Assembly (NCBI GenBank): GCA_965200965.1
Contig: OZ241744.1
Span: 2,976,001-3,040,000, forward strand
DNA: 64,000 nt
Source: an uncultured Candidatus Binatia bacterium
GTDB lineage: Bacteria; Desulfobacterota; Binatia; Bin18
Direction: 5' to 3'
Positions within the stretch are counted from its first letter, which is position 1; each line of letters opens with the position of its first letter. Made by a program: the position numbers and the translations under genes. The notes under the pieces are model-generated. The model had not been told where the DNA came from, did no database searches, and was given only the letters and a program-made list of their open reading frames with translations. This document shows, piece by piece, positions 6,017 through 38,067 of the stretch.

Positions 6017-7192
6017 TTATCCCACCTCAATGCTTGGGAGTCTCTCAATAATCCGAGCTTGCAAAACCTTGTATCCTTGAGCGCCAGAAAACTGGCCGCT
6101 AACGCCCTCAGAACCACTTTTCCAAAAGTCGGCACCCTCAACAAAGACGCCTTCTGAATTGCGTCCCCCCATTTCAAGCGGTGTCCTCATAATTTCAGCG
6201 TATCTAGCCGGATCAAAGACAGAGTAACCTTTCGATACCATTATAGCCAACACGTTGACCAGGACCGCATGTAGCTGGGTCACCCCCAATGTACCCTGCA
6301 AGTTGTACCGTTCAGGGTCCTGCATAGCCTCTGGAAGAATCTGCTTGATGCCTTCCCAATATGCCTGGAGAACCTTGGATTGCTGGTCTTTATCGCCGAG
6401 TGCCTGGAAAACCCCAGGCAGTTCCACCAAAGGTTTCAGCGACTTCGTCATACCATTGTTCTTGATCAAAGTATCACCCTTTTTGTCGCCCGGGTATCGT
6501 ATTTTGCCGCGCCAAATTTCCGATTTCGAGAGTTTGTCGGTCAACTTACCGGCCTCTACTATCCACGCCTTCCCGGTTTCGATCAGATGGTCTCTAACCG
6601 CTTCAGATTTCTCCGCCCGTTGCCCCAGCAACTCATACGCCAAGCCGGTAGGTATACTCTTGGCGTTGCTGTTGACCACATGAAATTCGTTCATTTCCCC
6701 GTCTCGGTCTGCGCCAAGCAGGCACACGAACGGCAAAGAGTAGCCTTCCCATTCCTCAGCGTTTTCTTTGTTTTCCTTGAAGAGAGAAACCGACGCTTCT
6801 ACTCGATGCTGACCGTCCACCACATACAGGCGGTCGTCAGGGGAAAGCACCAACTCAGTCTGCTCGGCCAAAATGTTGAGGTGGCAGCTCTCATTGAAGT
6901 CTCTCAGGTTCAGGAGAATCGCTGTGGGAAGGTCAACTCGACGATCTTCCAAATCCTTCTTGAGAGAATTGACCCGACCCGAGGTAGGCATACGTTGATA
7001 CCCTTCTTGATTGTCGGGCGTTCGACGATCAACCTCGAAAAGTTTGGCAAGGACTGGAACTGGTATGGAACCGATGGCGATTCGCCTGCCTTTTTGCGAG
7101 ATCCAATCGTTATCGTTATACCTGAGATCCGGTAGCTCTTGCACAATAATGGGTAGCCGGTAAGCCTCCGTGGTCGTTTTCTGAATAGCCAT
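6017..7192 (-). CDS. DGQHR-domain protein (DndB/ParB-like fold)
   Basis: GYQR, PTAILL, VVDGQHRV, EFHVVN motifs; AAAGGAGG RBS before MAIQK. Confidence 0.85.
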   Translation of the reverse strand: MAIQKTTTEAYRLPIIVQELPDLRYNDNDWISQKGRRIAIGSIPVPVLAKLFEVDRRTPDNQEGYQRMPTSGRVNSLKKDLEDRRVDLPTAILLNLRDFNESCHLNILAEQTELVLSPDDRLYVVDGQHRVEASVSLFKENKENAEEWEGYSLPFVCLLGADRDGEMNEFHVVNSNAKSIPTGLAYELLGQRAEKSEAVRDHLIETGKAWIVEAGKLTDKLSKSEIWRGKIRYPGDKKGDTLIKNNGMTKSLKPLVELPGVFQALGDKDQQSKVLQAYWEGIKQILPEAMQDPERYNLQGTLGVTQLHAVLVNVLAIMVSKGYSVFDPARYAEIMRTPLEMGGRNSEGVFVEGADFWKSGSEGVSGQFSGAQGYKVLQARIIERLPSIEVG

Positions 7193-12992: not shown

Positions 12993-14219
12993 ATGAGTAT
13001 GCACAACGGGATTCTCTCAGGACTGCGGGTGATCGACTGTGGAACCTATGTCGCCGGACCGGCCTCGACCACAATCATGTCGGATTTCGGGGCCGAGGTG
13101 GTCAAAATTGAGCGGCCTCAAGGCGGGGACCTGTACCGCTTCATGGGCGAGCTGCCAGGGTTTGCCAGGGCCGAGCTCAACTGGCCCTGGATTCTGACCA
13201 GCCGCAACAAGAAGAGCGTCGCCCTTGACCTTGATTTGGACCAGGGCCGGGAAGCCCTCATCCGTCTGGTCAAAACCGCGGACGTGTTTGTCACCAACTA
13301 CCAACACCCGCTGCTCGCCAGGTTCCGGCTGAACTGGGACGATCTGCGGCCCGAGAACGAACGCCTCATCTACGCCCATCTGACCGGCTATGGCGATACG
13401 GGTGAGGACGCCGACGCGCCGACCTTTGACGCGCTGGCATATTGGGCGCGCTCGGGCTTGATGATGAGCGTAGTCGGCATGGATGGCACGCCCGGCGGTC
13501 CACGGCCGGGCATGGGCGATCACCCGACCTCGGTGTCGCTGTTCGGGGCCATCATGCTCGGTCTGTACCACCGCGAGCGGACCGGACAGGGGCTCAAGGT
13601 CGGGACCTCGCTGCTGGCCAGCGGTGCCTGGGCCAATGCCTGCGACCTCCAGGCCAGCTTCTGCAAGGCCAGTTTTCCGGAACGCCGCAGCGACGGTACG
13701 CCCCCCAACCCGCTGGCGGCCGGCTATCGGAGCCGCGACGGCAAAGCCTTTCTGGTGGTGCTGCTCGACCCGGACAAGGAGTTCCCCAATCTGTGCGCAG
13801 CACTCGGTCAGGCCGAGCTGGCTACCAACCCGCTGTTCACCACCAATGAGGCCAGAGCGGAAAACGCCGCGGCCCTGTTCGCCATTCTGCAATCGCAGTT
13901 TGAGTCGCGCGATCTGGCCGAATGGCGCGGGCTGTTCAAGCGGTCTGATATCAAATGGGCCCCCCTGCCCCGGCGCGACGAGGTGCTTGAAGACCCCCAG
14001 ATGCGGGCCGCCGGGGCGTTTATTGACCTGGAGTACCCCGGCCACGGGCAATTGACGACCATCAACAGCCCTATTTTTACCAGCGCCGGCGACAAGCGAC
14101 CGCCGACCGCGGCCCCGCAGCTCGGCGCACATACCCGCGCCGTGTTGCAAGACCTGGGCTATAGCGAGGAGGCAATTGCCGGCCTCATCGAGAATGGCAC
14201 CGCGGCCACGGGCGATTGA
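12993..14219 (+). CDS. Class III CoA-transferase (CaiB/BaiF)
   Basis: LRVID, DFGAEVVKIE, RNKKS, GMGDH catalytic Asp. Confidence 0.9.
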   Translation: MSMHNGILSGLRVIDCGTYVAGPASTTIMSDFGAEVVKIERPQGGDLYRFMGELPGFARAELNWPWILTSRNKKSVALDLDLDQGREALIRLVKTADVFVTNYQHPLLARFRLNWDDLRPENERLIYAHLTGYGDTGEDADAPTFDALAYWARSGLMMSVVGMDGTPGGPRPGMGDHPTSVSLFGAIMLGLYHRERTGQGLKVGTSLLASGAWANACDLQASFCKASFPERRSDGTPPNPLAAGYRSRDGKAFLVVLLDPDKEFPNLCAALGQAELATNPLFTTNEARAENAAALFAILQSQFESRDLAEWRGLFKRSDIKWAPLPRRDEVLEDPQMRAAGAFIDLEYPGHGQLTTINSPIFTSAGDKRPPTAAPQLGAHTRAVLQDLGYSEEAIAGLIENGTAATGD

Positions 14220-17200
14220 TGAACCTGAGCGGCGCAGTCGAGACCTACCTGAGCGAGTTGGGCCGGGTGCGGGCCTCGGGCGGGGCCACCGGCGAGCGGT
14301 CCTTTTATGGGCCGCTCGCCAATCTGCTGAACGCCATTGGGAGTGCGCTCAGGCCCAAGGTCGTCTGCGTTGGCGAGCTGGCCGACCAGGGGGCCGGCCA
14401 TCCCGACTTTGGCCTGTACGCGGCCAGGCAACTCCAGAAGAACCAGCCCAAGCAGGGGCAAATTCCAGAACGGGGTGTAGTTGAGGTCAAGGCCGCGGCT
14501 GACGACGCCTGGCTGACCGCGGCGAGCCAACAGGTCAGCCGCTATTGGAGCCGCTACCGGCTGGTGCTCGTCACCAATACGCACGATTTTGTGCTGCTTG
14601 GCGAGAACGCCGCCGGCGGGCCGGCCACGCTCGAAACCTTCCGCCTGGCTGACAACGCCGCGACATTCACCCGTCTGCTTGAAACGCCCCGGGCCTCCGC
14701 CGGCAAGCTCGGCCCCGGCCTCGGCGAATACCTGGCCCGTGCGCTCTCACACCGGGTGCGCCTGGCCGACCCCAAAGACCTGGCGTGGCTGCTGGCCTCC
14801 TACGCCCGTGACGCCCTGGCCCGGGTTGAGGCGGCCGGCGACGCCCCGCAACTCGCCACCATCCGCGCCGCGCTGGAAGAAGCCCTGGGCGTCCATTTTG
14901 AGGGCGAGCGCGGGGGCCGCTTCTTTCGCTCCACCCTGGTTCAGACCCTCTTCTACGGGGTGTTCTCGGCCTGGGTGTTATGGGCGCGGCAGCGGCCAGC
15001 ACCCGCCTTTGACTGGCGGCTTGCCGTGTGGCATCTGCGCGCACCCGTTTTGCGGGCACTGTTTCAACAACTGTCTGACCCCGGTCGTCTGCGTACGCTG
15101 GGCCTGGTCGAAGTCCTGGACTGGACCGCCGCGGCCCTCGACCGGGTAGACCGGGCGGCCTTCTTTACCCGCTTCAGCGAAGGCGACGCCGTGCCCTACT
15201 TCTATGAACCCTTTCTCCAGGCCTTTGACCCCGCACTCCGCAAGCAACTCGGTGTCTGGTACACGCCGGCCGAGGTGGTACGCTACATGGTTGCCCGCGT
15301 AGATGGTGCCCTCAAACACGACCTCGGCATTGCCGACGGCCTGGCCAGCGACAAGGTGTATGTCCTTGACCCGTGCTGCGGCACTGGGGCCTATCTGGCC
15401 GAGACGCTGCGCCGGATTGCCGCCAATCTCGCCGGCAAGGGCCTCGGCGCGCTGACCGGGGCGGCGATCAAGCGGGCAGCGACCGAGCGGGTGTTCGGCT
15501 TTGAGATTATGCCCGCCCCGTTTGTGGTGGCCCACTTGCAGGTCGGCCTGACCATGCAGGAGCTTGACGCCCCGCTCGCGGACGATAGCGCGGAACGCCC
15601 CGGGGTCTTCCTGACCAACGCCCTGACCGGCTGGGAGCCGCGGACAACCAAACCCCTGCCGTTTCCGGAACTCGAAGACGAGCGCGACCGGGCCGAGCAG
15701 GTCAAGCGCGACACGCCCATCCTGGTCATTCTGGGCAACCCGCCCTATAACGGCTTTGCCGGCATGGCCATAGACGAAGAACGCGAATTGTCCGACGCCT
15801 ACCGCACGACCACGCGCGTCCGCCGACCCGAAGGCCAGGGCTTGAATGACCTGTATGTGCGCTTCTTTCGCATGGCCGAGCGGCGGATTGCCAAGACCGG
15901 CCAGGGTGTGGTGTGCTTCATCTCCAACTATTCGTGGCTGGACGGCCTGTCGTTTACCGGGATGCGGGAGCGCTATCTCGAATCCTTTGACGCCATTCGG
16001 CTCGACTGCCTGAACGGCGACAAGTACAAGACCGGCAAAGTTGCGCCGGACGGGACGCCCGACCCCAGCATTTTTTCCACGCCCAGCGATACCGTCGGCA
16101 TCCAGGTCGGCACCGCCATTGCGACCCTGGTCCGCAAAGCCGACCACGCCCCGGCCCAGACCGCCGGCTTCCGCCACCTGTGGGGGCAGGCCAAGCGGGA
16201 CGCGCTGCTGGAGAGCGCAGAGACACACCCGGCCAGGCTGTACGATCCCCTCACCCCGGCCCTGCCGCTCGGCCTGCCGTTTACGCCGGCCGCGGTCAGC
16301 CCTGAGTGGTCGGCCTGGCCGGCCCTGCCCGAACTGCTCCCGGTGTCGTTTCCGGGGGTTAAGACCAGCCGGGATGGGTTTCTTGTCGATATTGATCTCG
16401 ACCGGCTGAAGGCACGGCTCTGCGACTACTTCAATCGGGCCCTGGGCCATGAAGAAATTGACCGGCGCTATCCCGTGGCGATGAAGACGACAGGCCGGTT
16501 TGACGCGCGGGCGGTGCGTGATGCCTTGCTCGCACGCGGAGGCCCCAATGAAGCGGGCTTTATCCGCTACGCCTACCGGCCTTTTGACAACCGTTGGCTC
16601 TATTGGGAGGGGGATACCAAGCTGCTTGACGAGAAGCGCACTGACTACAAGCACCACATCTTTGACGGCAATCTGAAGCTACTTGACCGCAACCGCGCCG
16701 ACTACAAGCCACATGTATTTGGTGGAAACCTGGGGCTGGTTACGCAGCAAAAGCCACGCCGAGAGTGGTCGCCTCCGCAAGTGATTTCACATATCGGTTG
16801 TTTGGATCTAATGGACCGGGGTGCCACTACGTTTCCGCTTCGGCTCCGCAACGACGGCGGCCTCGAAAGTGCCGGAAACAGCCCGCAACACCGGCCTAAC
16901 CTGTCAGCCGCCGCCCGTCGCTATCTCGACCGCCTCGGCGCAAGCGTGGAAGACCTGTTTCACCACATCCTGGCCGTGCTGCACGACCCCGCCTACCGGG
17001 AAGCCAACGCCGGTGCTCTGCGCATGGAATGGCCGCGCATCCCGCTGCCCGGCTGGCCCGACGGCGGGAACGATGCCGCGGCGGAAGCGCTGGCCCGGTC
17101 CGCGGCCCGGGGCCGGGAACTGGCCGGCCTGCTCGATCCCGACACGCGCGTGTCAGGCGTCACCCAAGGCGATTTACGCCCGGAACTTGCCGTGATTGCC

Positions 17201-17581
17201 GTGCCGGCCACCGCGGATGGGCGTAACATGACCGGCGATGACTTCGCGCTGACCGCCGGCTGGGGTCACTTCGGGACGGGCGACGCCGTAATGCCGGGCC
17301 AGGGCCGGGCGGTAGAACGGGAGTACACCACGCCTGAAATAACAGTACTCGGCGCAAGCACCTTCGACATCCACCTGAACGCCCGCGCCTTTTGGCGCAA
17401 CGTGCCGGCCGCGGTCTGGCGCTATAAGCTCGGCGGCTACCCGGTCCTCAAGAAATGGCTCTCCTACCGCGAGCGGAAAGTGCTGGGCCGGCCGCTGTTG
17501 CCCGAGGAAGTGCAGCGCTTCACCGACACCGCCCGACGCATTGGGGCGATACTGCTGATATCTGCTTTGACTGAACTGTAA
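14216..17581 (+). CDS. Single-chain RM enzyme: nuclease + N6-adenine MTase + Type ISP-like C-terminal specificity domain, no helicase
   Basis: PDFGL...VEVKA (PD-D/ExK), YFYEPFL, GVWYTP, LDPCCGTG, LGNPPY, YRPFD, VWRYKLGGYPVLKKWLSYR. Confidence 0.88.
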   Translation: MMNLSGAVETYLSELGRVRASGGATGERSFYGPLANLLNAIGSALRPKVVCVGELADQGAGHPDFGLYAARQLQKNQPKQGQIPERGVVEVKAAADDAWLTAASQQVSRYWSRYRLVLVTNTHDFVLLGENAAGGPATLETFRLADNAATFTRLLETPRASAGKLGPGLGEYLARALSHRVRLADPKDLAWLLASYARDALARVEAAGDAPQLATIRAALEEALGVHFEGERGGRFFRSTLVQTLFYGVFSAWVLWARQRPAPAFDWRLAVWHLRAPVLRALFQQLSDPGRLRTLGLVEVLDWTAAALDRVDRAAFFTRFSEGDAVPYFYEPFLQAFDPALRKQLGVWYTPAEVVRYMVARVDGALKHDLGIADGLASDKVYVLDPCCGTGAYLAETLRRIAANLAGKGLGALTGAAIKRAATERVFGFEIMPAPFVVAHLQVGLTMQELDAPLADDSAERPGVFLTNALTGWEPRTTKPLPFPELEDERDRAEQVKRDTPILVILGNPPYNGFAGMAIDEERELSDAYRTTTRVRRPEGQGLNDLYVRFFRMAERRIAKTGQGVVCFISNYSWLDGLSFTGMRERYLESFDAIRLDCLNGDKYKTGKVAPDGTPDPSIFSTPSDTVGIQVGTAIATLVRKADHAPAQTAGFRHLWGQAKRDALLESAETHPARLYDPLTPALPLGLPFTPAAVSPEWSAWPALPELLPVSFPGVKTSRDGFLVDIDLDRLKARLCDYFNRALGHEEIDRRYPVAMKTTGRFDARAVRDALLARGGPNEAGFIRYAYRPFDNRWLYWEGDTKLLDEKRTDYKHHIFDGNLKLLDRNRADYKPHVFGGNLGLVTQQKPRREWSPPQVISHIGCLDLMDRGATTFPLRLRNDGGLESAGNSPQHRPNLSAAARRYLDRLGASVEDLFHHILAVLHDPAYREANAGALRMEWPRIPLPGWPDGGNDAAAEALARSAARGRELAGLLDPDTRVSGVTQGDLRPELAVIAVPATADGRNMTGDDFALTAGWGHFGTGDAVMPGQGRAVEREYTTPEITVLGASTFDIHLNARAFWRNVPAAVWRYKLGGYPVLKKWLSYRERKVLGRPLLPEEVQRFTDTARRIGAILLISALTEL
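16619..16732 (+). repeat. 57-bp (19-aa) divergent tandem duplication inside the RM gene
   Basis: KLLDEKRTDYKHHIFDGNL followed directly by KLLDRNRADYKPHVFGGNL. Confidence 0.85.
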
Positions 17582-18082: not shown

Positions 18083-18570
18083 CCAAAGCGATCCACGGGA
18101 AAGTTGCCCGAGTTCTTAACTCGCGTGAAGTTGCGCTCAATATCGGCTCCGCAGACGGGGTGGCCGTCGGCCTGTACTTCGACATCATGGATGCGAAAGG
18201 GGAAGATATCACAGACCCTGATACGGGTGAAACATTAGGGTCCATCCAACGTACAAAAGTCAGGGTTCAAGTTATTCATGTTCAAGAGAAGTTGTCTCTC
18301 GCGGCTACATACAGGCAGAGAAGAGGCGGCAGCAGGAGACTGTTTAACCCGGGTCTCGCGGAGTTTCTCATGCCACAAAAATGGGTGAATGAATATGAAA
18401 CCTTGAAATCGCAAGAGAAAACGTGGGAGCCGATGAGTGAGCAAGAGAGCTATGTAGAAATCGGAGACCCCGTTGTTCAAGTCCTTGACAATAGGGAGGG
18501 AGTAGCAAGGGAAACTGAGTTGCCTCAGAACCTCGCAACCGCCTCTACTGAGTCCCGGAGGTCGGATTAG
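18079..18570 (+). CDS. Hypothetical protein with FlgT C-terminal-like beta domain
   Basis: GKVARV...VALNIGSADGV-VG...ITDPDTGETLG pattern; stop TAG lies inside a REP. Confidence 0.6.
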   Translation: MTKAIHGKVARVLNSREVALNIGSADGVAVGLYFDIMDAKGEDITDPDTGETLGSIQRTKVRVQVIHVQEKLSLAATYRQRRGGSRRLFNPGLAEFLMPQKWVNEYETLKSQEKTWEPMSEQESYVEIGDPVVQVLDNREGVARETELPQNLATASTESRRSD

Positions 18571-18585
18571 CGCAGCGTAACCCGA
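18557..18585 (+). repeat. REP, left-type copy
   Basis: GGAGGTCGGATTAGCGCAGCGTAACCCGA, matching 26065-26093. Confidence 0.8.
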
Positions 18586-18608: not shown

Positions 18609-18887
18609 ATGGACAACCCGCCACACCCCGGGGGAATCGTGAGACGGCAGTGTCTTGACGCACTCGGCCTTTCTGTGACGCGGGCGGCCCAAGGCTTGGG
18701 GGTCACACATAAAGCGCTGTCCGATCTGGTCAACGAAAAATCCAGTATCTCGGTTGAAATGGCCTTACGCCTCTCCAAGGCGTTCGGCTCAAGCCCCGAG
18801 ACCTGGATCGGCATGCAGATGGCCTATGATCTCTGGCAGGCACGAGAGCAAGCCGCCCACCTCACGGTTGAGAAGTTCACGGCCTAG
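18609..18887 (+). CDS. higA: HigA-family antitoxin (HTH), no adjacent toxin
   Basis: NPPHPG, LSVTRAAQGLGV, ISVEMALRLSKAFGSSPETW, MQMAYDLWQA. Confidence 0.9.
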   Translation: MDNPPHPGGIVRRQCLDALGLSVTRAAQGLGVTHKALSDLVNEKSSISVEMALRLSKAFGSSPETWIGMQMAYDLWQAREQAAHLTVEKFTA

Positions 18888-18895
18888 CCGTGCCT

Positions 18896-18927
18896 GTCGG
18901 ATTACGCCCGCGGTGAATCCGACCTAC
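18896..18927 (-). repeat. REP, right-type (inverted) copy
   Basis: GTCGGATTAC...GAATCCGACCTAC, which reads GTAGGTCGG on the minus strand. Confidence 0.8.
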
Positions 18928-19043
18928 AGCCGGTTCTCTTGTTGCGATGAAATGGATGCCGAATACCCCGAAAGAGGCCAGTCTCCCGGTCCACGGCCTC
19001 GCCGCGCTTGACGGGCCGGACAGCGTACAGTAGGACAGAGCGC

Positions 19044-19394
19044 ATGGCCGGCTTGGCATTTGACACCCATAAAGCCGTCAAGGCCCTCCGGGAAGCCGGG
19101 GCGGACGAACCCTTGGCCGAAGCCGTTGTGGTGACGATTGGCGATGCGCTCGGTGAGCATGTCGCCACCAAGGCTGATGTGGCCGAAGTCAAGACCGGCT
19201 TGGCCGAAGTCAAGGCTGAGCTCAAGGCCGATGTGGCCGAAGTCAAGGCTGAGCTCAAGGCCGATGTGGCCGAAGTCAAGGTCAACCTGGCGGAAATGGA
19301 AACCCGCCTCTACCGCCACCTGTGGATGATGGCCGCCGGCATTGTGGGGCTGACGGTCAGCCTCACTGTTGCCCTGGTGAAGCTGACCTCGTGA
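19044..19394 (+). CDS. DUF1640/CCDC90-like membrane-anchored coiled-coil protein, copy 1 (116 aa)
   Basis: FDTHKAVKALREAG head, VATKAD neck, repeat stalk, C-terminal TM helix. Confidence 0.85.
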   Translation: MAGLAFDTHKAVKALREAGADEPLAEAVVVTIGDALGEHVATKADVAEVKTGLAEVKAELKADVAEVKAELKADVAEVKVNLAEMETRLYRHLWMMAAGIVGLTVSLTVALVKLTS

Positions 19395-19408
19395 CCAGGC
19401 CGACAGCC

Positions 19409-19430
19409 CGGATTAGCACAGCGTAATCCG
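19409..19430 (+). repeat. REP-derived palindrome in the array spacer
   Basis: CGGATTAGCACAGCGTAATCCG. Confidence 0.75.
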
Positions 19431-19505
19431 ACGGGCGCGTTGCTGCTTGGCCGTGCCGGCCGCTTCCTCTTGACGGGCCGGACGGTGTGCAGTAAAAGGG
19501 AGCGC

Positions 19506-19976
19506 ATGGCCGGCTTGGCATTCGACACCCATAAAGCCGTCAAAGCCCTCCGGGAAGCCGGGGCGGACGAACCCTTGGCCGAAGCCGTTGTGGTGACGAT
19601 TGGCAATGCGCTCGGCGAGCATGTTGCCACCAAGGCTGATGTGGCCGAAGCCAAGACCGCACTCAAGGCTGACGTGGCCGAAGTCAAGGCTGAGCTCAAG
19701 GCTGACATGGCCGAAGTCAAGACCGAGTTGGCCGAAGTCAAGGCTGAGCTCAAGGCTGACATGGCCGAAGTCAAGACCGAGTTGGCCGAAGTCAAGGCTG
19801 AGCTCAAGGCTGACATGGCCGAAGTCAAGGCTGAGCTCAAGGCCGACATGGCCGAAGTCAAGGTCAACCTGGCGGAAATGGAAACCCGCCTCTACCGCCA
19901 CCTGTGGATGATGGCCGCCGGCATTGTGGGGCTGACGGTCAGCCTCACTGTTGCCCTGGTGAAGCTGACCTCGTGA
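19506..19976 (+). CDS. DUF1640/CCDC90-like coiled-coil protein, copy 2 (156 aa)
   Basis: Near-identical to copy 1 with an expanded 33/21-bp repeat stalk. Confidence 0.85.
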   Translation: MAGLAFDTHKAVKALREAGADEPLAEAVVVTIGNALGEHVATKADVAEAKTALKADVAEVKAELKADMAEVKTELAEVKAELKADMAEVKTELAEVKAELKADMAEVKAELKADMAEVKVNLAEMETRLYRHLWMMAAGIVGLTVSLTVALVKLTS

Positions 19977-19990
19977 CCAGGCCGACAGCC

Positions 19991-20012
19991 CGGATTAGCA
20001 CAGCGTAATCCG
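19991..20012 (+). repeat. REP-derived palindrome in the array spacer
   Basis: Identical to 19409-19430. Confidence 0.75.
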
Positions 20013-20087
20013 ACGGGCGCGTTGCTGCTTGGCCGTGCCGGCCGCTTCCTCTTGACGGGCCGGACGGTGTGCAGTAAAAGGGAGCGC

Positions 20088-20537
20088 ATGGCCGGCTTGG
20101 CATTCGACACCCATAAAGCCGTCAAAGCCCTCCGGGAAGCCGGGGCGGACGAACCCTTGGCCGAAGCCGTTGTGGTGACGATTGGCAATGCGCTCGGCGA
20201 GCATGTTGCCACCAAGGCTGATGTGGCCGAAGCCAAGACCGCACTCAAGGCTGACATGGCCGAAGTCAAGGCTGAGCTCAAGGCTGACGTGGCCGAAGTC
20301 AAGGCTGAGCTCAAGGCTGATGTGGCCGAAGTCAAGGCTGAGCTCAAGGCTGATGTGGCCGAAGTCAAGACCGAGTTGGCCGAAGTCAAGGCTGAGCTCA
20401 AGGCTGACGTGGCCGAAGTCAAGGTCAACTTGGCGGAAATGGAAACCCGCCTCTACCGCCACCTGTGGATGATGGCCGCCGGCATTGTAGGGCTGACGGT
20501 CAGCCTGACCGTTGCCCTGGTGAAGCTGACCTCGTGA
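20088..20537 (+). CDS. DUF1640/CCDC90-like coiled-coil protein, copy 3 (149 aa)
   Basis: Same head and anchor with a different order of repeat units. Confidence 0.85.
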   Translation: MAGLAFDTHKAVKALREAGADEPLAEAVVVTIGNALGEHVATKADVAEAKTALKADMAEVKAELKADVAEVKAELKADVAEVKAELKADVAEVKTELAEVKAELKADVAEVKVNLAEMETRLYRHLWMMAAGIVGLTVSLTVALVKLTS

Positions 20538-21200
20538 CTATCCGCACGGGCAATTCTTACGAATTTGACCCACCAGGATGGCCGGCAACTCGTGGATGGA
20601 TTGCACGACACGGCTGGCGTGCGAAAAATCCTGGGATTTGGTGAAGGCGTGTTCAATGACGATACACTCCAGGCCGGCCGCCACCGCGGAGCGCAGACCG
20701 CGTTCAGAATCCTCAATCGCAATCGCTTCGTGGGGCTCAGCCCCGAACCGCTCCAGCGCGATCAGGTAGGGGTCGGGGGCCGGCTTGCTGCGCGCATAAT
20801 CACCGTTGGCAACCACAAAGTCCATATAGGACAGGAGCGTCCGGTCTTGGTGGATCAGGGCAAAGTCATCCTTCTTGGCCGTGGTGACAATCGCCATTGA
20901 AAAGAACGGCGACAGTTCGGCCAGTACGCTCAGTACGCCCGGAATCTCAATGTTTTCGGTCCGCAGACGCTCCTGGTAGGATCGGTTCCGCCGGCTGCGA
21001 TGGACGGCGATGACTTCTTCCGAGATGCCCCGCTGCCGGGCCAGCTCCCACATGGTCTGTCCCTGGGTCGTCCAGGCCACATATTCGGCTTTGTCAAAAG
21101 ATATCCCAAGTGCAGCCAGGGCGTGCCGGGTCGAGAGGAAGTACCAGTGTTCGGTATCGACCAGTACGCCGTCGTGGTCCCACAGAATGTATTTCAACAT
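20538..21200 (-). CDS. HAD-superfamily hydrolase (class IA)
   Basis: WDHDGVLVDTE, KPAPDPY, IEDSERG. Confidence 0.9.
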   Translation of the reverse strand: MLKYILWDHDGVLVDTEHWYFLSTRHALAALGISFDKAEYVAWTTQGQTMWELARQRGISEEVIAVHRSRRNRSYQERLRTENIEIPGVLSVLAELSPFFSMAIVTTAKKDDFALIHQDRTLLSYMDFVVANGDYARSKPAPDPYLIALERFGAEPHEAIAIEDSERGLRSAVAAGLECIVIEHAFTKSQDFSHASRVVQSIHELPAILVGQIRKNCPCG

Positions 21201-26235: not shown

Positions 26236-28467
26236 ATGGAGATGGAGAGAGCGCAACGAATCAGTGATATCATCTCGAAGCGGAAGCCCTTCGTTTCGAA
26301 AATTGAAGCCGTGAAGGGCAATCTCAATTCTCTGGGGACAGCGTTCGTCGCCTTGGAAAGACAGCGGGATAAACTCCTTGACCTCCTCGGTGGTGACGAT
26401 AAAGATACTGTTGAAAACCTGCGAAAAATTGAGGTCAATTCTCTTCCGCGAGAAATCGTTGAACAGACCAGTTCCCTTGACAGACTCAAAAAACGCTTTT
26501 CGCGCAAGACCCTCAACATTGCGGTTATCGGACGGGCCCGCCAGGGCAAGAGCCGCCTGCTGCAAAGTTTAAGCGGGCTTTCACCCACAGAAATTCCCGA
26601 CGGCAGCGGCCAACATTGCACCGGGGTGCGGAGTACCATTTTTCACGACGATCGAGCGTCTGAAACTTCTGCTGAGGTCGTTTTTCACACGGAGCGGTCT
26701 TTCCTGGAGGAGGTGATTTACCCTTACTACGAGGAGTTGGAGTTAGGCCGAAAACCTACCTTCGTGGACGATTTTTCCCGGGATCCCCTGCCACCGTTAT
26801 CGGACGGTAGCAGTGCAGCGGATAAAGCCAAATATGAGCATTTACAGCGCTACAAGACCCACCTTGATAGCTACGGTGGCTTGTTGAACGAATCTCCGCG
26901 GTCCATTCCGGGCAAGGAAATCCCCACCTACGTCGCTCAGGACGGGGGGAACTATCGTTATATGGCGGTTCGAGAGGTAAAAATTACCTGCCACTTTCCT
27001 AAAGAAGACGTGGGGCAGATTGCCTTGGTTGATCTCCCCGGGTTGGGAGATACCGGTATTGGTGATGCGGAACGATTGATCAAAACCCTGAGCCAGGACG
27101 TTGACTTCGTGCTCTTCGTCAGAAAACCGAATCCGAGCGGGGACTTTATCGCCGATGTCGACATCAGCCTGTATGATACCGCCCGTTCGGCGCTGAGGGA
27201 AATTCCGCTGGAAGAGTGGTCTTTTATGGTGTTCAACACAATTGACCCCTCTTCCAGAGGAGAACAAGGCGACAACTCAGATTTGTGCAGAGAGCTTTCT
27301 GAAAAAGTAAATGAAGGCTCAACCATAAAGGTTTCCGAGACTATCATCGCTAACTGCGCTGACCCTCAATCGGCGTCAACAGGTATCCTGGACCCCTTAC
27401 TCGACTACTTGGAGGGGCACATCACAGCCCTTGATGAAGGGTACCTCTCAGCTTGTCTCGACAAGCACGAGCGGCTGCATCGCACAATTAACGCGGAATT
27501 AGAGAAGGCCCGGACTGCTCTGGGTAAGGCAGAATCAGACGATGTAGAATTCGTAGCGCTCTTTCGAGAGTTGTGGAGAAATCTGAATCGCGGGCTTACA
27601 GCCTTACTTCGAAGATTCGAAGGGATCCGTGAGGCGGAGAACAGTCAGTACAGACAAGACTTTCAAAAATCTGTGGCAGCAATCATAAAGGAGTGTCGTG
27701 ACAGCACAAATTCGATTATTCCAACTCTGGAGCATATCGAAACAACAATAGACACCGAAAACTCTGCCCAGAGTGCTTACAACGTCTACCTTGACCAGAC
27801 TCGGGCTCACCTGTCGCAAAAATTCTTGAAATTGGATGAGGGCTTGACGCACTCTTTTGACATGATGAAAGCCCAGGTCTCCGAAGTTCTTATAGAAAAG
27901 GGACGCATGGGAGGACTGACCGATTCCAGAGGGCCGAAGTTTCTCGAAGAAATAAAAAATCAACTTGAAGATATCAAGGAACATACGAAAGAACTAAAGG
28001 AAGGTTTTGAAATCCTTTCCGATTTCACGCTATCCTACAGAGGATTTGCGCAGCACCGCATTCGCAAGCGTTTTGACGACCTTACCACCGATACGTCCCG
28101 GCGTAAGCTCAATTCATTCTCCTTGTCGAGGATAATAAAACGTCAGGAGGTCTCGGACGCAGAGAAGATTCGAGAGAATCTGGAATTCCTATACAACGAA
28201 GCCGTTTCCAAATGCGAGATTGCGCTGAAGGAGTTGCTTCCTGAGCCTTCTGAAGCGGCCTTTGCAATCGTCGAAGAATTTAACGATCGCGTTTTAAGGG
28301 CGGAAAACGTTCAGGACGAATGGCGGATATTCCTCCGCCTAGAGCGTCATAGGATATGGCCGGAAAAGTTCGGACTCATCGGCGAAGGGACCAAACTGCG
28401 TGAGGAGTGGTATTCCATAATAGAGCGCATCGAAAAGGCGAATAAAGAAGACCCCCTACTCGCTTAG
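26236..28467 (+). CDS. Dynamin-like GTPase with long helical C-terminus
   Basis: G1 GRARQGKS, G2 HCTG, G3 DLPG, G4-like FNTID; lower GC. Confidence 0.8.
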   Translation: MEMERAQRISDIISKRKPFVSKIEAVKGNLNSLGTAFVALERQRDKLLDLLGGDDKDTVENLRKIEVNSLPREIVEQTSSLDRLKKRFSRKTLNIAVIGRARQGKSRLLQSLSGLSPTEIPDGSGQHCTGVRSTIFHDDRASETSAEVVFHTERSFLEEVIYPYYEELELGRKPTFVDDFSRDPLPPLSDGSSAADKAKYEHLQRYKTHLDSYGGLLNESPRSIPGKEIPTYVAQDGGNYRYMAVREVKITCHFPKEDVGQIALVDLPGLGDTGIGDAERLIKTLSQDVDFVLFVRKPNPSGDFIADVDISLYDTARSALREIPLEEWSFMVFNTIDPSSRGEQGDNSDLCRELSEKVNEGSTIKVSETIIANCADPQSASTGILDPLLDYLEGHITALDEGYLSACLDKHERLHRTINAELEKARTALGKAESDDVEFVALFRELWRNLNRGLTALLRRFEGIREAENSQYRQDFQKSVAAIIKECRDSTNSIIPTLEHIETTIDTENSAQSAYNVYLDQTRAHLSQKFLKLDEGLTHSFDMMKAQVSEVLIEKGRMGGLTDSRGPKFLEEIKNQLEDIKEHTKELKEGFEILSDFTLSYRGFAQHRIRKRFDDLTTDTSRRKLNSFSLSRIIKRQEVSDAEKIRENLEFLYNEAVSKCEIALKELLPEPSEAAFAIVEEFNDRVLRAENVQDEWRIFLRLERHRIWPEKFGLIGEGTKLREEWYSIIERIEKANKEDPLLA

Positions 28468-28488
28468 GAGGGAGAAAGTGAGGAGCAT

Positions 28489-28929
28489 ATGCCCAAAAAC
28501 TCGATCCAAAATCAACTGCACACCCCTCTGGGAAGGGCTTTGCGTGATGCTGGCATGGTGAACTGGGGAGAAGAGCAACAAGTCCGGCCGGGAAAGCTCT
28601 ATGGTTGGACGACGACGGGTCAGAATGGGCTAGGTGTGGGTGTATATGCGCGAGAAGCGACGGACAAGGTTGTCTCGCTGTTCCACATCAGGACTTGTGA
28701 GGAGGATGAAGTCAAGTTCGCCACTCGTCGGCATATAGCCGACTATCTCCCGGATATTCCATCTGAGGTGCTGGATTCCTGGATGGACTTCATTGAGACC
28801 TTGGAGCCTGTGCGACGCACGATATCTGACCAGCAGTACCTTGTAGTGCAACTGTCCCGGGTTGAGGAGAACGTTGACAGGATGATCGAGTTGATGAAGC
28901 CATTGTATCGTACAATGGATTCGAAATGA
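28489..28929 (+). CDS. Hypothetical protein, probable partner of the dynamin-like GTPase
   Basis: GAGGAG RBS, 21 bp after the GTPase, similar composition, short C-terminal coiled coil. Confidence 0.65.
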   Translation: MPKNSIQNQLHTPLGRALRDAGMVNWGEEQQVRPGKLYGWTTTGQNGLGVGVYAREATDKVVSLFHIRTCEEDEVKFATRRHIADYLPDIPSEVLDSWMDFIETLEPVRRTISDQQYLVVQLSRVEENVDRMIELMKPLYRTMDSK

Positions 28930-35948: not shown

Positions 35949-36212
35949 ATGAGCTCCCTTGCTTTTGACACCCACAAGGTCGCCGCTGCGCTGAAGCAGG
36001 CTGGGTTTGACGAGGGCCAAGCGGAAGCCGTCATCAACACCGTGGGCGATGCCCCAGGCGGCAAGGTCGCCACGAAGGCCGACCTGACGGAAGCGGTAGC
36101 GGCCGTGCGGGTGGACATGGCCGCTCAGTTTGCCGGCCTCCACAAACGGCTATGGCTCATGGCTGTCGGCATCGTCGGCCTGACCGTCACCCTGGTGAAA
36201 CTCATCCCCTGA
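35949..36212 (+). CDS. Short-stalk DUF1640/CCDC90-like protein (fourth paralog)
   Basis: LAFDTHK, VATKADL, LWLMAVGIVGLTVTLVKL. Confidence 0.8.
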   Translation: MSSLAFDTHKVAAALKQAGFDEGQAEAVINTVGDAPGGKVATKADLTEAVAAVRVDMAAQFAGLHKRLWLMAVGIVGLTVTLVKLIP

Positions 36213-36270: not shown

Positions 36271-37071
36271 TCAGGGTTGGGGAGCTTGAGAGGGGCTTGG
36301 CGGCGGGGTTTTTTTGAGTTTCTGAAATTGCCCCTCCAGATGCTCTAAGGCCAGCATTTTTCTTTCTCGATGTTTGGGGTTTTCCTCCTCCTGAATAAAC
36401 TCTTTCAGGTGTTCAAGGAGAAACTCCACAATAGCGTCCCGGTTGCAGTCTTTGTTTTTGTTGCAATATCCAACAAGAGATTCTGCCAACTCCGCATACG
36501 GCTTGTTGCCCAGGCTCTCCTCCTCCCTTTTTATCGCCTCCTCAACAAAAGCTCTGGTGTAACCCCACTCCTTGGCATAGTAGCCGGAGATCGCCTCACC
36601 TTCCGATGCAGTGATTTGGTCATCGTCGGCTTTTGCGACTCTGAGACTCAGAGGCAGCATCAGCCCCAGCACTTCGTCAGCGATCACATCGAGAGGCGTG
36701 TTGATGTACTCGGGGATCTTGATCATCATCTTATCCTCAATCTTATCCCCAAACTTCCCCAAGAGCTTCTTCGCTCCGAGGTAGGCCCCTCCGGCAAGCG
36801 CACCGGCACCAACGACCCAGCCTATCGGCGTTGCTGCCGCCGCGCCAAGGCCAAGAGTTGCGAGAATACCCGATGTTGGGAAGAAAGTGGTGGCGACCAC
36901 TGAACTAGAGGCAACCAACGCCCCGCTAGAGCCAGCGCCGGCGGCCCCCAGCAATGTTGACAGGTTCTTGCGCATTCTCAGGAGTTTGTAGGCATCCTCT
37001 CCCATGCTGAGCTTTTCCTTGAATCTCCAGTCGTCCGCGAGGATCGTGATTTCTTCCTGGTCTTGGGCCAT
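36271..37071 (-). CDS. Gly/Ala-rich hydrophobic-hairpin protein with TerB-like C-terminus, paralog 2
   Basis: Glycine-zipper segment; VAKADD-IT-SE...I motif; clear paralog of 37279-38067. Confidence 0.65.
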   Translation of the reverse strand: MAQDQEEITILADDWRFKEKLSMGEDAYKLLRMRKNLSTLLGAAGAGSSGALVASSSVVATTFFPTSGILATLGLGAAAATPIGWVVGAGALAGGAYLGAKKLLGKFGDKIEDKMMIKIPEYINTPLDVIADEVLGLMLPLSLRVAKADDDQITASEGEAISGYYAKEWGYTRAFVEEAIKREEESLGNKPYAELAESLVGYCNKNKDCNRDAIVEFLLEHLKEFIQEEENPKHRERKMLALEHLEGQFQKLKKTPPPSPSQAPQP

Positions 37072-37278: not shown

Positions 37279-38067
37279 TCAGGGCTGGGGAGGTTGAGAG
37301 GGGCCGGCGGTAGTGGTTTTTTTGAGTTTCTGAAATTGCCCCTCCAGATACTCCAAGGCTATCATTTTCTCTTCTCTACGGTCGCTGTTTTCCTCCTCTT
37401 GAATAATATCTTTGAGGTGTTTGCGGAAAGACCCCACGATCGCGTCCCGATTGCAGTCTTCGTTGTCATTGCAGAATCCGACAAGAGATTCTCCCAAAGC
37501 CTTATACCGTTTGTTGAGGGTGCTCTTCCCCGCCTTTTTCATCGCCTCCTCAACAAAAGCTCTGGTGTAACCCCACTCCTCGGCGTAGTAGTCGCAGATC
37601 GCCTTGCCTTCCGATGTGGTGATTTGGTCATCCCCGATTTTTGCGAATTTGAGACTCAGAGGCAGCATCTGTTTAAGCAACTCGCGAGCGAGCTCATCGG
37701 GACCTTTGTTAAGCTGCTTGGGGAATTTGTGCATCAGAGCTCCCTCAAGCTTATCAGAGAGCTTCTTCGCTCCGAGGTAGGCCCCTCCGGCAAGCGCGGC
37801 GGCAGCAACGACCCAGCCTAGCGGCGTTTCTGCCGGCGCTCCAAGACCAAAGGTTGCGAGAAAACCCGATTTTGGGAAGAAAGTGGTGGCGACCGCCGAA
37901 CTAGAGGCAACCAGCACCCCAGCAGCGCCAGCGCCGGCGACCCCCAGAACTATTGACAGCTTCTTCCGCAATCTCAGGACTTTGTAGGCATCCTCTCCAA
38001 TGCCGAGCTTTTCCCTGAATATCCGGTCGTCGGCAAGGATTTCCTGGGGTCCTGAGTCCTGGGCCAT
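37279..38067 (-). CDS. Gly/Ala-rich hydrophobic-hairpin protein with TerB-like C-terminus, paralog 1
   Basis: Same architecture as 36271-37071; TAATG-coupled to the upstream gene. Confidence 0.65.
   Translation of the reverse strand: MAQDSGPQEILADDRIFREKLGIGEDAYKVLRLRKKLSIVLGVAGAGAAGVLVASSSAVATTFFPKSGFLATFGLGAPAETPLGWVVAAAALAGGAYLGAKKLSDKLEGALMHKFPKQLNKGPDELARELLKQMLPLSLKFAKIGDDQITTSEGKAICDYYAEEWGYTRAFVEEAMKKAGKSTLNKRYKALGESLVGFCNDNEDCNRDAIVGSFRKHLKDIIQEEENSDRREEKMIALEYLEGQFQKLKKTTTAGPSQPPQP

Follow-up and report, generated by a model that had tools for sequence, protein, structure and literature searches.

The CCDC90-like/DUF1640 proteins (PF07798), which include human CCDC90B (PDB 6H9M), MCUR1, yeast Put6 and Put7 and prokaryotic members, share a head sequence, an ATK-x-D neck, a coiled-coil stalk and one C-terminal membrane helix. 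Mitochondrial members come as a single stable gene or a small number of them, and their described roles are in the uptake of calcium or the use of proline; the MCUR1 head binds MCU as its partner, and the defining paper for such head-neck-stalk-anchor proteins is said to be that of Adlakha et al. in 2019. This architecture is reviewed for MCUR1 (PMC8224590), Put6 and Put7 face the mitochondrial matrix (PMC7519068) and a beta-layer motif is described in DUF1640 proteins (PMC4786415). Here a 64,000-nt stretch (64 kb, termed the window; coordinates are positions within it) was analysed from the 3.62-Mb, single-contig genome of an uncultured Candidatus Binatia bacterium (G000, contig OZ241744.1), and it carries a real, recently remodelled tandem array of three genes of this known protein family. 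The array proteins are also alike to the described members in their predicted trimer and predicted N-in topology. The array family departs from the mitochondrial one: this genome has 17 paralogs and others have up to 37, the stalks derive from recent repeats in the DNA, and the genes form tandem arrays, have putative leaderless promoters and are rapidly gained and lost. The best reading of these data is a birth-and-death gene family with a hypervariable stalk. We lean towards the view that its products are tail-anchored trimers that likely present a conserved head, probably a protein-binding one, to the cytoplasm, and that stalk length drifts by recombination and is untuned.

The three genes lie in tandem on the forward strand, are near-identical and encode 116, 156 and 149 aa (copy 1, 19044..19394; copy 2, 19506..19976; copy 3, 20088..20537), as the initial annotation of this DNA had claimed. 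Copy 1 is CCDC90-like, with a two-helix head, an ATK beta-layer neck, a 49-residue stalk (∼7 nm) and a C-terminal membrane anchor; the stalks of copies 2 and 3 have 89 (∼13 nm) and 82 residues (∼12 nm). Past their first 11 nt the stalks consist of 7- and 11-codon units, arranged as 21-33-33 bp in copy 1, 33-33-21-33-21-33-33 bp in copy 2 and 33-33-33-33-21-33 bp in copy 3, and this parsing bore out the proposed length steps of 40, 7 and 33 aa with differing unit orders. No tandem repeats besides the array stalks were found by Tandem Repeats Finder over the window. The head and anchor had been called constant and are nearly so, but 5 of 129 head bases differ between copy 1 and copies 2 and 3, and 4 of 123 tail bases between copy 3 and copies 1 and 2. 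Both 111-bp spacers (19395..19505 and 19977..20087) are identical, and each holds, as described, a hairpin like a repetitive extragenic palindrome (REP; 19409-19431 and 19991-20013), followed by the promoter-like box of the next copy (-35 at 19470 and -10 at 19493 for copy 2; 20052 and 20075 for copy 3). The box of copy 1 (19008..19036) has its -35 TTGACG at 19008-19013, 17 nt, its -10 TAGGAC at 19031-19036 and 7 nt to the ATG, from which a leaderless transcript is predicted. Position 19008, formerly given as the start of the feature, is the start of this box, but it is the -35 element, and the start codon is at 19044. The TTGACG-N17-TA motif is present ahead of every array gene. A fourth gene with a minimal stalk, also annotated earlier, is real (35949..36212, forward strand; 87 aa, 24-residue stalk, ∼4 nm); it lacks an upstream TTGAC box and is truncated in the congener G007.

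Family membership was confirmed at several levels. Copies 2 and 3 scored 52.2 and 50.4 bits against PF07798 (cut-off 33.5), and copy 1 (31.0 bits) and the 87-aa paralog (24.5 bits, E 2.8e-5) fell below the cut-off because of their short stalks. First matches in the Atlas (0.93) were to PF07798 clusters, and a head profile (A1) matched human CCDC90B, PDB 6H9M, with E 1.2e-6. VATKAD, present in all four window genes, corresponds by sequence to the neck motif [aliphatic]-A-T-K-x-[DE], in which T42 and D45 are invariant across 36 sequences. Searches of NCBIfam and Rfam gave no specific match. A monomer model (predicted local distance difference test, pLDDT, 82) has head helices at residues 8-17 and 22-35 and a continuous helix at 43-115; 6H9M was its top row in Foldseek, weakly (E 0.33), and the fold search in PDB and viral libraries returned nothing at E <= 0.001. 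The trimer that had been proposed was also predicted by modelling, scoring 0.74 where the best of three controls scored 0.00, with agreement between runs in at least 93% of contacts and pLDDT of at least 85; in calibration on two-copy cases, 20 of the 30 solved pairs and 1 of the 23 single chains scored that high. As a similar trimer has already been solved, this score shows likeness. The head, with its two helices, bears a weak and non-significant likeness to domain III of RuvA and to the N-terminal domain of EF-Ts, both small protein-binding helical modules (sequence E 0.19; Foldseek E ∼7-8).

Topology was assessed over a family set of 169 distinct genes, of which 145 were complete and 24 were set aside (3 fusions, 2 cut at locus ends, 1 weakly hydrophobic and ∼18 broken, appearing truncated or frameshifted on reading of the gene list). 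Lysine and arginine were in excess before the anchor relative to after it in 127 of the 145 complete genes, with the opposite in 1 and ties in 17; the C-tail had a median of 2 aa and none of the 145 had a signal-like N-terminus. Given this charge bias and the absence of a signal peptide, the head is predicted to be cytoplasmic and the protein is likely to be tail-anchored in the inner membrane. A host-facing adhesin or a system of antigenic variation was rejected on this predicted topology. The family shares some features with the Borrelia Bdr proteins (PF02524 KID), which have many inner-membrane-associated paralogs per genome (PMC10016077) and repeat numbers that vary by strain, ∼9 versus 6 in bdrT (PMC3303823), and in which a repeat region is likewise followed by a C-terminal hydrophobic stretch. 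The bdr genes are located on plasmids and prophages, whereas the family genes here are chromosomal. Homology to Bdr was not supported: the Bdr protein tested did not match PF07798, hhalign of one Bdr to the head profile gave a probability of 0.6%, and PF02524 was absent from the window genes.

The middle copy is a mosaic. Across 60 nt upstream and all 129 head bases copy 2 shows 0 differences from copy 3, carrying the five head differences against copy 1, and across the 123 tail bases and 60 nt downstream it shows 0 differences from copy 1, carrying the four tail differences against copy 3. The homology of copy 1 to the other copies starts at its TTGACG box. Copy 2 thus appears to be a recombinant, as expected of unequal crossover within the stalk, and a crossover origin is the explanation that we somewhat favour. 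A two-gene tandem, A-B, would have misaligned through shared stalk units, and a single unequal crossover would then have given A-[B head/A tail]-B, duplicating the spacer with its hairpin and promoter and creating a new length in one step. Frame and coiled-coil register would have been kept at each change because the units are whole heptads and hendecads, and a single crossover in the stalk would account for the identity of the spacers without any role for the hairpin. Since the inner units of copy 2 differ from a plain splice of the present copies 1 and 3, reshuffling by later slippage or conversion would have gone on. That the locus comprises three of 17 genomic paralogs, with a recombinant in the middle, are two points that the initial annotation had missed.

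An array of near-identical repeats might also be produced by assembly of a single gene with an unstable repeat three times over. Among public runs, ten rows carried at least half of the words of the stretch (four labelled sponge metagenome; one study), and 8 of 21 listed runs, from five studies and all in the form of contigs, were examined. No RNA source was listed among the public runs, a result without bearing on expression. All eight runs examined had contigs that connect the tail with the spacer and the spacer with the head, the complete junction being on a single contig in seven and in two pieces in the eighth. Single-base variants were seen in these contigs in the stalks and a head at 19082, 19731, 20239 and 20414, and copy-specific single-nucleotide polymorphisms are present. 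None of the contigs from the eight runs spans the entire array, and one run (X1) may be the source sample; both would be compatible with an artefact. Two observations that would fit 2 to 5 copies were not used as evidence: the depth of the tail-spacer-head piece relative to the flank (1.3, 1.4, 1.6, 1.7, 2.1 and 3.8 in six of eight runs, leaving out X11 and X12 for low or partial cover), since contig depth gives no copy number, and the missing cover over the copy 2 stalk in run X2, since such a hole proves nothing. The congener G007 carries its own three-copy array at the orthologous site, between the higA region and a HAD gene, encoding 105, 87 and 127 aa, with other repeat units, another layout and a decayed higA duplicated between copies. 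An assembly artefact is therefore largely refuted already and we regard it as practically negligible; the array is also variable between genomes rather than invariant. The HAD gene is kept in seven of seven congeners, and an array copy lies beside it in G007 and not in the other six.

The heads are, by sequence comparison, under purifying selection, with a ratio of non-synonymous to synonymous differences (pN/pS) of 0.11 over 78 nearest-neighbour pairs, against 0.24 for the tails (61 pairs). The stalks behave otherwise. Exact internal repeats were found in 59 of 145 genes, with every period a multiple of 3 and a smallest period of 11 codons in 34 genes, 7 in 11, 18 in 4, and 9, 13 or 20 in 6. 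Between orthologs of G000 and G007 lengths are not conserved (array, 116/156/149 versus 105/87/127; elsewhere 116 versus 224, 171 versus 133, 141 versus ∼134, and 87 versus truncated), which argues against tuning.

Molecular rulers of the tape-measure or WbdD type fix, by their own length, how large a product of linked partner genes becomes or how far it reaches; for the array family neither a linked partner gene nor a conserved length was found. The initial description of the stalks as length-tuned was therefore not upheld, lengths being unconserved between orthologs and no partner gene recurring, although its expectation that length changes keep the coiled-coil register was. The alternative in this direction is a diversifying library of rulers, in which selection keeps several stalk lengths so that one head can engage partners located nearer to or farther from the membrane. 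It would be in keeping with the unequal lengths of 35 of 36 adjacent array pairs with similar heads, with operon-like arrays of three to five lengths and 10-22 bp spacers (L112, L114, L115), and with a register-keeping value in 20 of 26 length differences of up to 40 aa (15 of 40 integers qualify; nominal p 5e-5, the pairs not being independent), as well as with the statement in PMC8224590 that stalk length is important in MCUR1. Unequal lengths and a kept register follow from whole-unit crossover as well as from selection, however, since duplication by crossover inside the stalk by itself gives unequal in-register lengths; 17 of 18 adjacent pairs with at most two head substitutions are already unequal in length. 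The missing array beside the HAD gene in six of seven congeners, the choice of the arrays examined for close-spaced matches rather than at random and the lack of a conserved partner also count against selected lengths, which we consider unlikely, if deserving of attention.

The three array genes belong to a larger set. As had been proposed, paralogs were counted genome-wide: 17 head-neck matches were found in G000, many with their own repeat stalks, and they occupy unrelated intergenic sites: downstream of dnaB and of glycyl-tRNA synthetase, within two cas loci, ahead of a methyltransferase and amid metabolic genes. Among the best 80 of 121 matches, the closest named relatives were assemblies of Candidatus Binatia, Nitrospirales, Alpha- and Gammaproteobacteria, Acidobacteria and Dehalococcoidia, and some of their names point to sponges. 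In the taxonomic family a head-profile match was present in 42 of 55 genomes, with 3-27 copies (median 9) in the 25 genomes of at most 10 contigs; it was present in 61 of 201 genomes of the class and in 36 of 201 of Nitrospirales, the latter with up to 23 copies, and 50 genomes chosen for having a match held 1-37 copies. In 20 regions picked for close-spaced matches, arrays reached six copies, and the spacers of some measured 10-22 bp. Genera within the family contrasted in copy number (median 7 versus 0), but the fragmented genomes of both groups were alike (p 0.15) and the contrast is unsafe because fragmented assemblies undercount.

Each array gene was claimed to have its own promoter, and the -35/-10 geometry across the family supports this. 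A strict TTGAC-N16-18-TA-N5-8-start pattern lies upstream of 27 of the 144 family genes, compared with 13 of 2018 among the long genes of G000. Under a looser TTG pattern, found for 43 of 144 genes (∼30%), the spacer measures 17-18 and the distance to the start codon 6-7 without exception, and T occupies the sixth -10 base, for which no selection was made, in 29 of 43, the genes being kin and the counts not independent. This geometry suggests a sigma-70-type promoter with a predicted start on the start codon, that is, a leaderless cassette, and leaderless expression is the interpretation that we are inclined to adopt. A ribosome-site-like motif is found instead in 49 of 144 family genes.

The hairpin of the spacers is called REP-like on the basis of a GTAG pattern, which we take to mark such elements. 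Like REPs and bacterial interspersed mosaic elements, it is a 23-bp imperfect palindrome, present at 20 G000 sites (55 under a relaxed pattern), several with a GTAG end. It differs from them in that the spacer copies are without GTAG, G000 has 0 matches to the Y1 transposase PF01797, and a hairpin lies within 300 bp at only 2 of 15 gene sites, so that the association suggested between REP and gene is local and does not extend genome-wide. Rfam gave no match for the hairpin, and folding scored z -2.1 for a 35-nt hairpin and -0.6 for the entire spacer. The array hairpin is copied as part of the spacer. An element mobilised by a REP-associated tyrosine transposase was rejected because PF01797 is missing, few sites (2 of 15) have a hairpin nearby and none of the four sites compared gave a clean empty site.

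The gene appears to act as a self-contained cassette of promoter and open reading frame that is gained, amplified and lost. At the four sites compared in congeners, neither precise insertion with target duplication nor a clean empty site was found; TGAC occurs at the stop in 45 of 86 TGA stops versus a background of 23%, among genes that are kin. Head DNA reaches 84% identity across records of Nitrospirales, Binatia, Acidobacteria and Latescibacterota (one pair at 97% may reflect a difference in labelling), and a quick tree built on 74 columns mixes phyla, with 13 of 74 branches well supported; these data are suggestive of transfer across phyla. In a Rhodobacteraceae assembly with 18 matches the gene is within a repeated element of more than 8 kb on several contigs (L051, L054, L056, L060, L061). 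A 22-kb contig of another genome (G006:C5:868-19368) has three equal-scoring matches ∼9 kb apart, of which the two that were read are identical 148-aa genes, a pattern that points to a small circular element or to a collapsed repeat. In G007 (L119; G007:C1:1244000-1251500) two fusions join the head to a small glutamine-rich membrane protein, and a third joins a head with a short stalk to a 515-aa pentapeptide-repeat protein beside a methyltransferase; the gene types fused there are separate neighbours in G000 (L107).

Such behaviour may be read in two further ways. The gene could be a near-neutral passenger, a short self-promoted cassette of no current benefit that accumulates in genomes taking up much accessory DNA; its patchy presence in the class and in Nitrospirales, frequent decay and lack of a fixed site agree with this, and copy number follows accessory-gene load. 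A head pN/pS of 0.11, promoter geometry conserved across phyla, the frame kept by all exact repeats and the lack in G000 of a Y1-type transposase to drive selfish spread do not, and we hold a passenger to be very improbable. More ambitiously, a minimal mobile leaderless cassette, running from the -35 box to the stop codon, may be shared by several phyla of animal-associated bacteria and amplified to as many as 37 copies per genome. Its arrays would be a recombination-driven tether library that shows one conserved head at many distances from the membrane, with selection for the range of lengths itself, and might form an as yet unrecognised system for anti-phage defence or membrane scaffolding and the bacterial equivalent of MCUR1; this can be put forward only tentatively.

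Genes of the family are also known from mobile DNA. Phage and plasmid DUF1640 genes (APSE P47, Liberibacter SC1/SC2 gp27, Arsenophonus and Vibrio plasmids) belong to the family (29-44% identity, with matches to PF07798) and are likewise stand-alone small genes in host-associated bacteria, but in the records viewed they are single copies beside phage replication genes or recombinases, whereas no prophage context was seen around the array. The Liberibacter prophage DUF1640 gene is described in PMC5291501, and single mentions occur in bioRxiv 10.1101/2025.10.14.682030, bioRxiv 10.64898/2026.06.29.734755 and PMC6856195. The family could comprise moron-like anti-phage membrane factors, acting by superinfection exclusion or interference with DNA entry and spread with defence genes, and variation in length would then alter their reach or escape phage counter-measures. 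In favour of this are homologs carried by prophages and plasmids of insect symbionts and vibrios (18 phage records, from Liberibacter and APSE, and 22 plasmid records), matches to PHROG 9415 and 17872, both annotated without a function, and the gene's own promoter. Also in favour are two G000 copies within 2 kb of cas1 (2 of 15 versus 0.13 expected, p 0.007, noticed before testing) and a correlation of copy number with N6_N4 methyltransferase count (rho 0.77 in 55 genomes and 0.48 in the 25 contiguous ones, kin not being independent). Against it, G000 gene sites lie within 5 kb of 68 defence markers no more often than by chance (4 of 15 versus 2.8 expected, p 0.30), and the excess within 2 kb (4 versus 1.35, p 0.04) is driven by the two cas loci, the markers having been partly chosen after the neighbours were viewed. 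Over 63 loci in other genomes, from which 17 near-duplicate sites had been dropped, 7 of 122 immediate neighbours were defence-like and 68 had any Pfam match. A known anti-phage system was rejected with PADLOC 2.0, in which copy 1 and the 87-aa paralog were unmatched and copy 2 had weak matches over the stalk only, and there is no conserved operon. An anti-phage role is in our judgement rather improbable.

The array had been placed in a defence islet, and this holds on the upstream side only: a type ISP/IIG restriction-modification gene lies upstream (14216..17581, forward strand), followed by an orphan HigA-family antitoxin gene (18609..18887, forward strand; TIGR02607, 105.6 bits) between REP-like hairpins at 18563-18585 (forward) and 18889-18927 (reverse). 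It does not hold genome-wide, as the 5-kb comparison indicates. No toxin open reading frame was recognised beside the HigA gene, which is decayed and duplicated in G007. The HAD hydrolase gene (20538..21200, reverse strand) is convergent with copy 3 and abuts it. G000 carries a large defence load (48 methyltransferase sites, 6 cas1 loci and 14 toxin-antitoxin/Uma2 sites), and 32 N6_N4_Mtase and 18 N6_Mtase matches and 10 Uma2 genes were counted in its 3.6 Mb. The neighbours of family genes are unrelated and mostly ordinary; no conserved partner gene was found, the commonest neighbour within 2.5 kb being a generic ABC ATPase (10 of 110 loci). A second small membrane-protein family, with no Pfam match, recurs near family genes in several genomes (L100:7537-7887, L107:2044-2427 and 6217-6540, L036:2831-3247). 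Beside the 87-aa paralog are tandem paralogs of 266 and 262 aa (36271-37071 and 37279-38067, reverse strand), with no Pfam or PADLOC match; G007 has apparently one copy of this type, joined by a deletion to its truncated 87-aa paralog. Elsewhere in the window a 743-aa dynamin-like GTPase gene (weak Dynamin_N and LeoBC matches) and then a 146-aa open reading frame follow a PemK-like gene (26236-28929, forward strand), and these two are a possible defence module.

We return to the birth-and-death reading with an untuned stalk. By analogy with MCUR1 and Put6/Put7, the head may be an adaptor tethering a cytoplasmic partner or may build a homo-oligomeric scaffold at the membrane, and we incline somewhat to the adaptor. 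If any stalk of ∼3 to more than 20 nm is tolerated, selection would act on the presence of the head at the membrane and not on a set distance. Several points weigh against this reading. No bacterial partner of the head was identified and the gene neighbourhoods give no candidate, so the adaptor role is by mitochondrial analogy. The copy 2 stalk is no simple splice of the present copies 1 and 3 and later events must be assumed; moreover, deletion from a longer array, or gene conversion, would give an identical mosaic. The array -10 boxes (TAGGAC, TAAAAG) are without the consensus T at position 6 and a consensus promoter scan over the array scored 0 sites, so the promoters may be weak. Selection for length spread likewise predicts the unequal lengths of adjacent copies, the correlation with methyltransferase number in the 25 contiguous genomes fits a defence role as well, and PMC8224590 states that the stalk length of MCUR1 matters for the interaction with MCU.

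No paper on tandem arrays or genome-wide expansions of the PF07798 family was found in the literature searched, supplements being outside the search, and the scale of expansion in contiguous genomes of the taxonomic family (median 9, up to 27 copies), like the putative leaderless cassette, was not described there. If length is neutral, the locus would be a tidy yet unexceptional example of genes arising and being lost through unequal crossover. The arrays nevertheless constitute a natural length series on an identical head, short enough for expression in a laboratory host, and so make the role of stalk length directly testable; they bear on the question of what the MCUR1/CCDC90 family does in bacteria.

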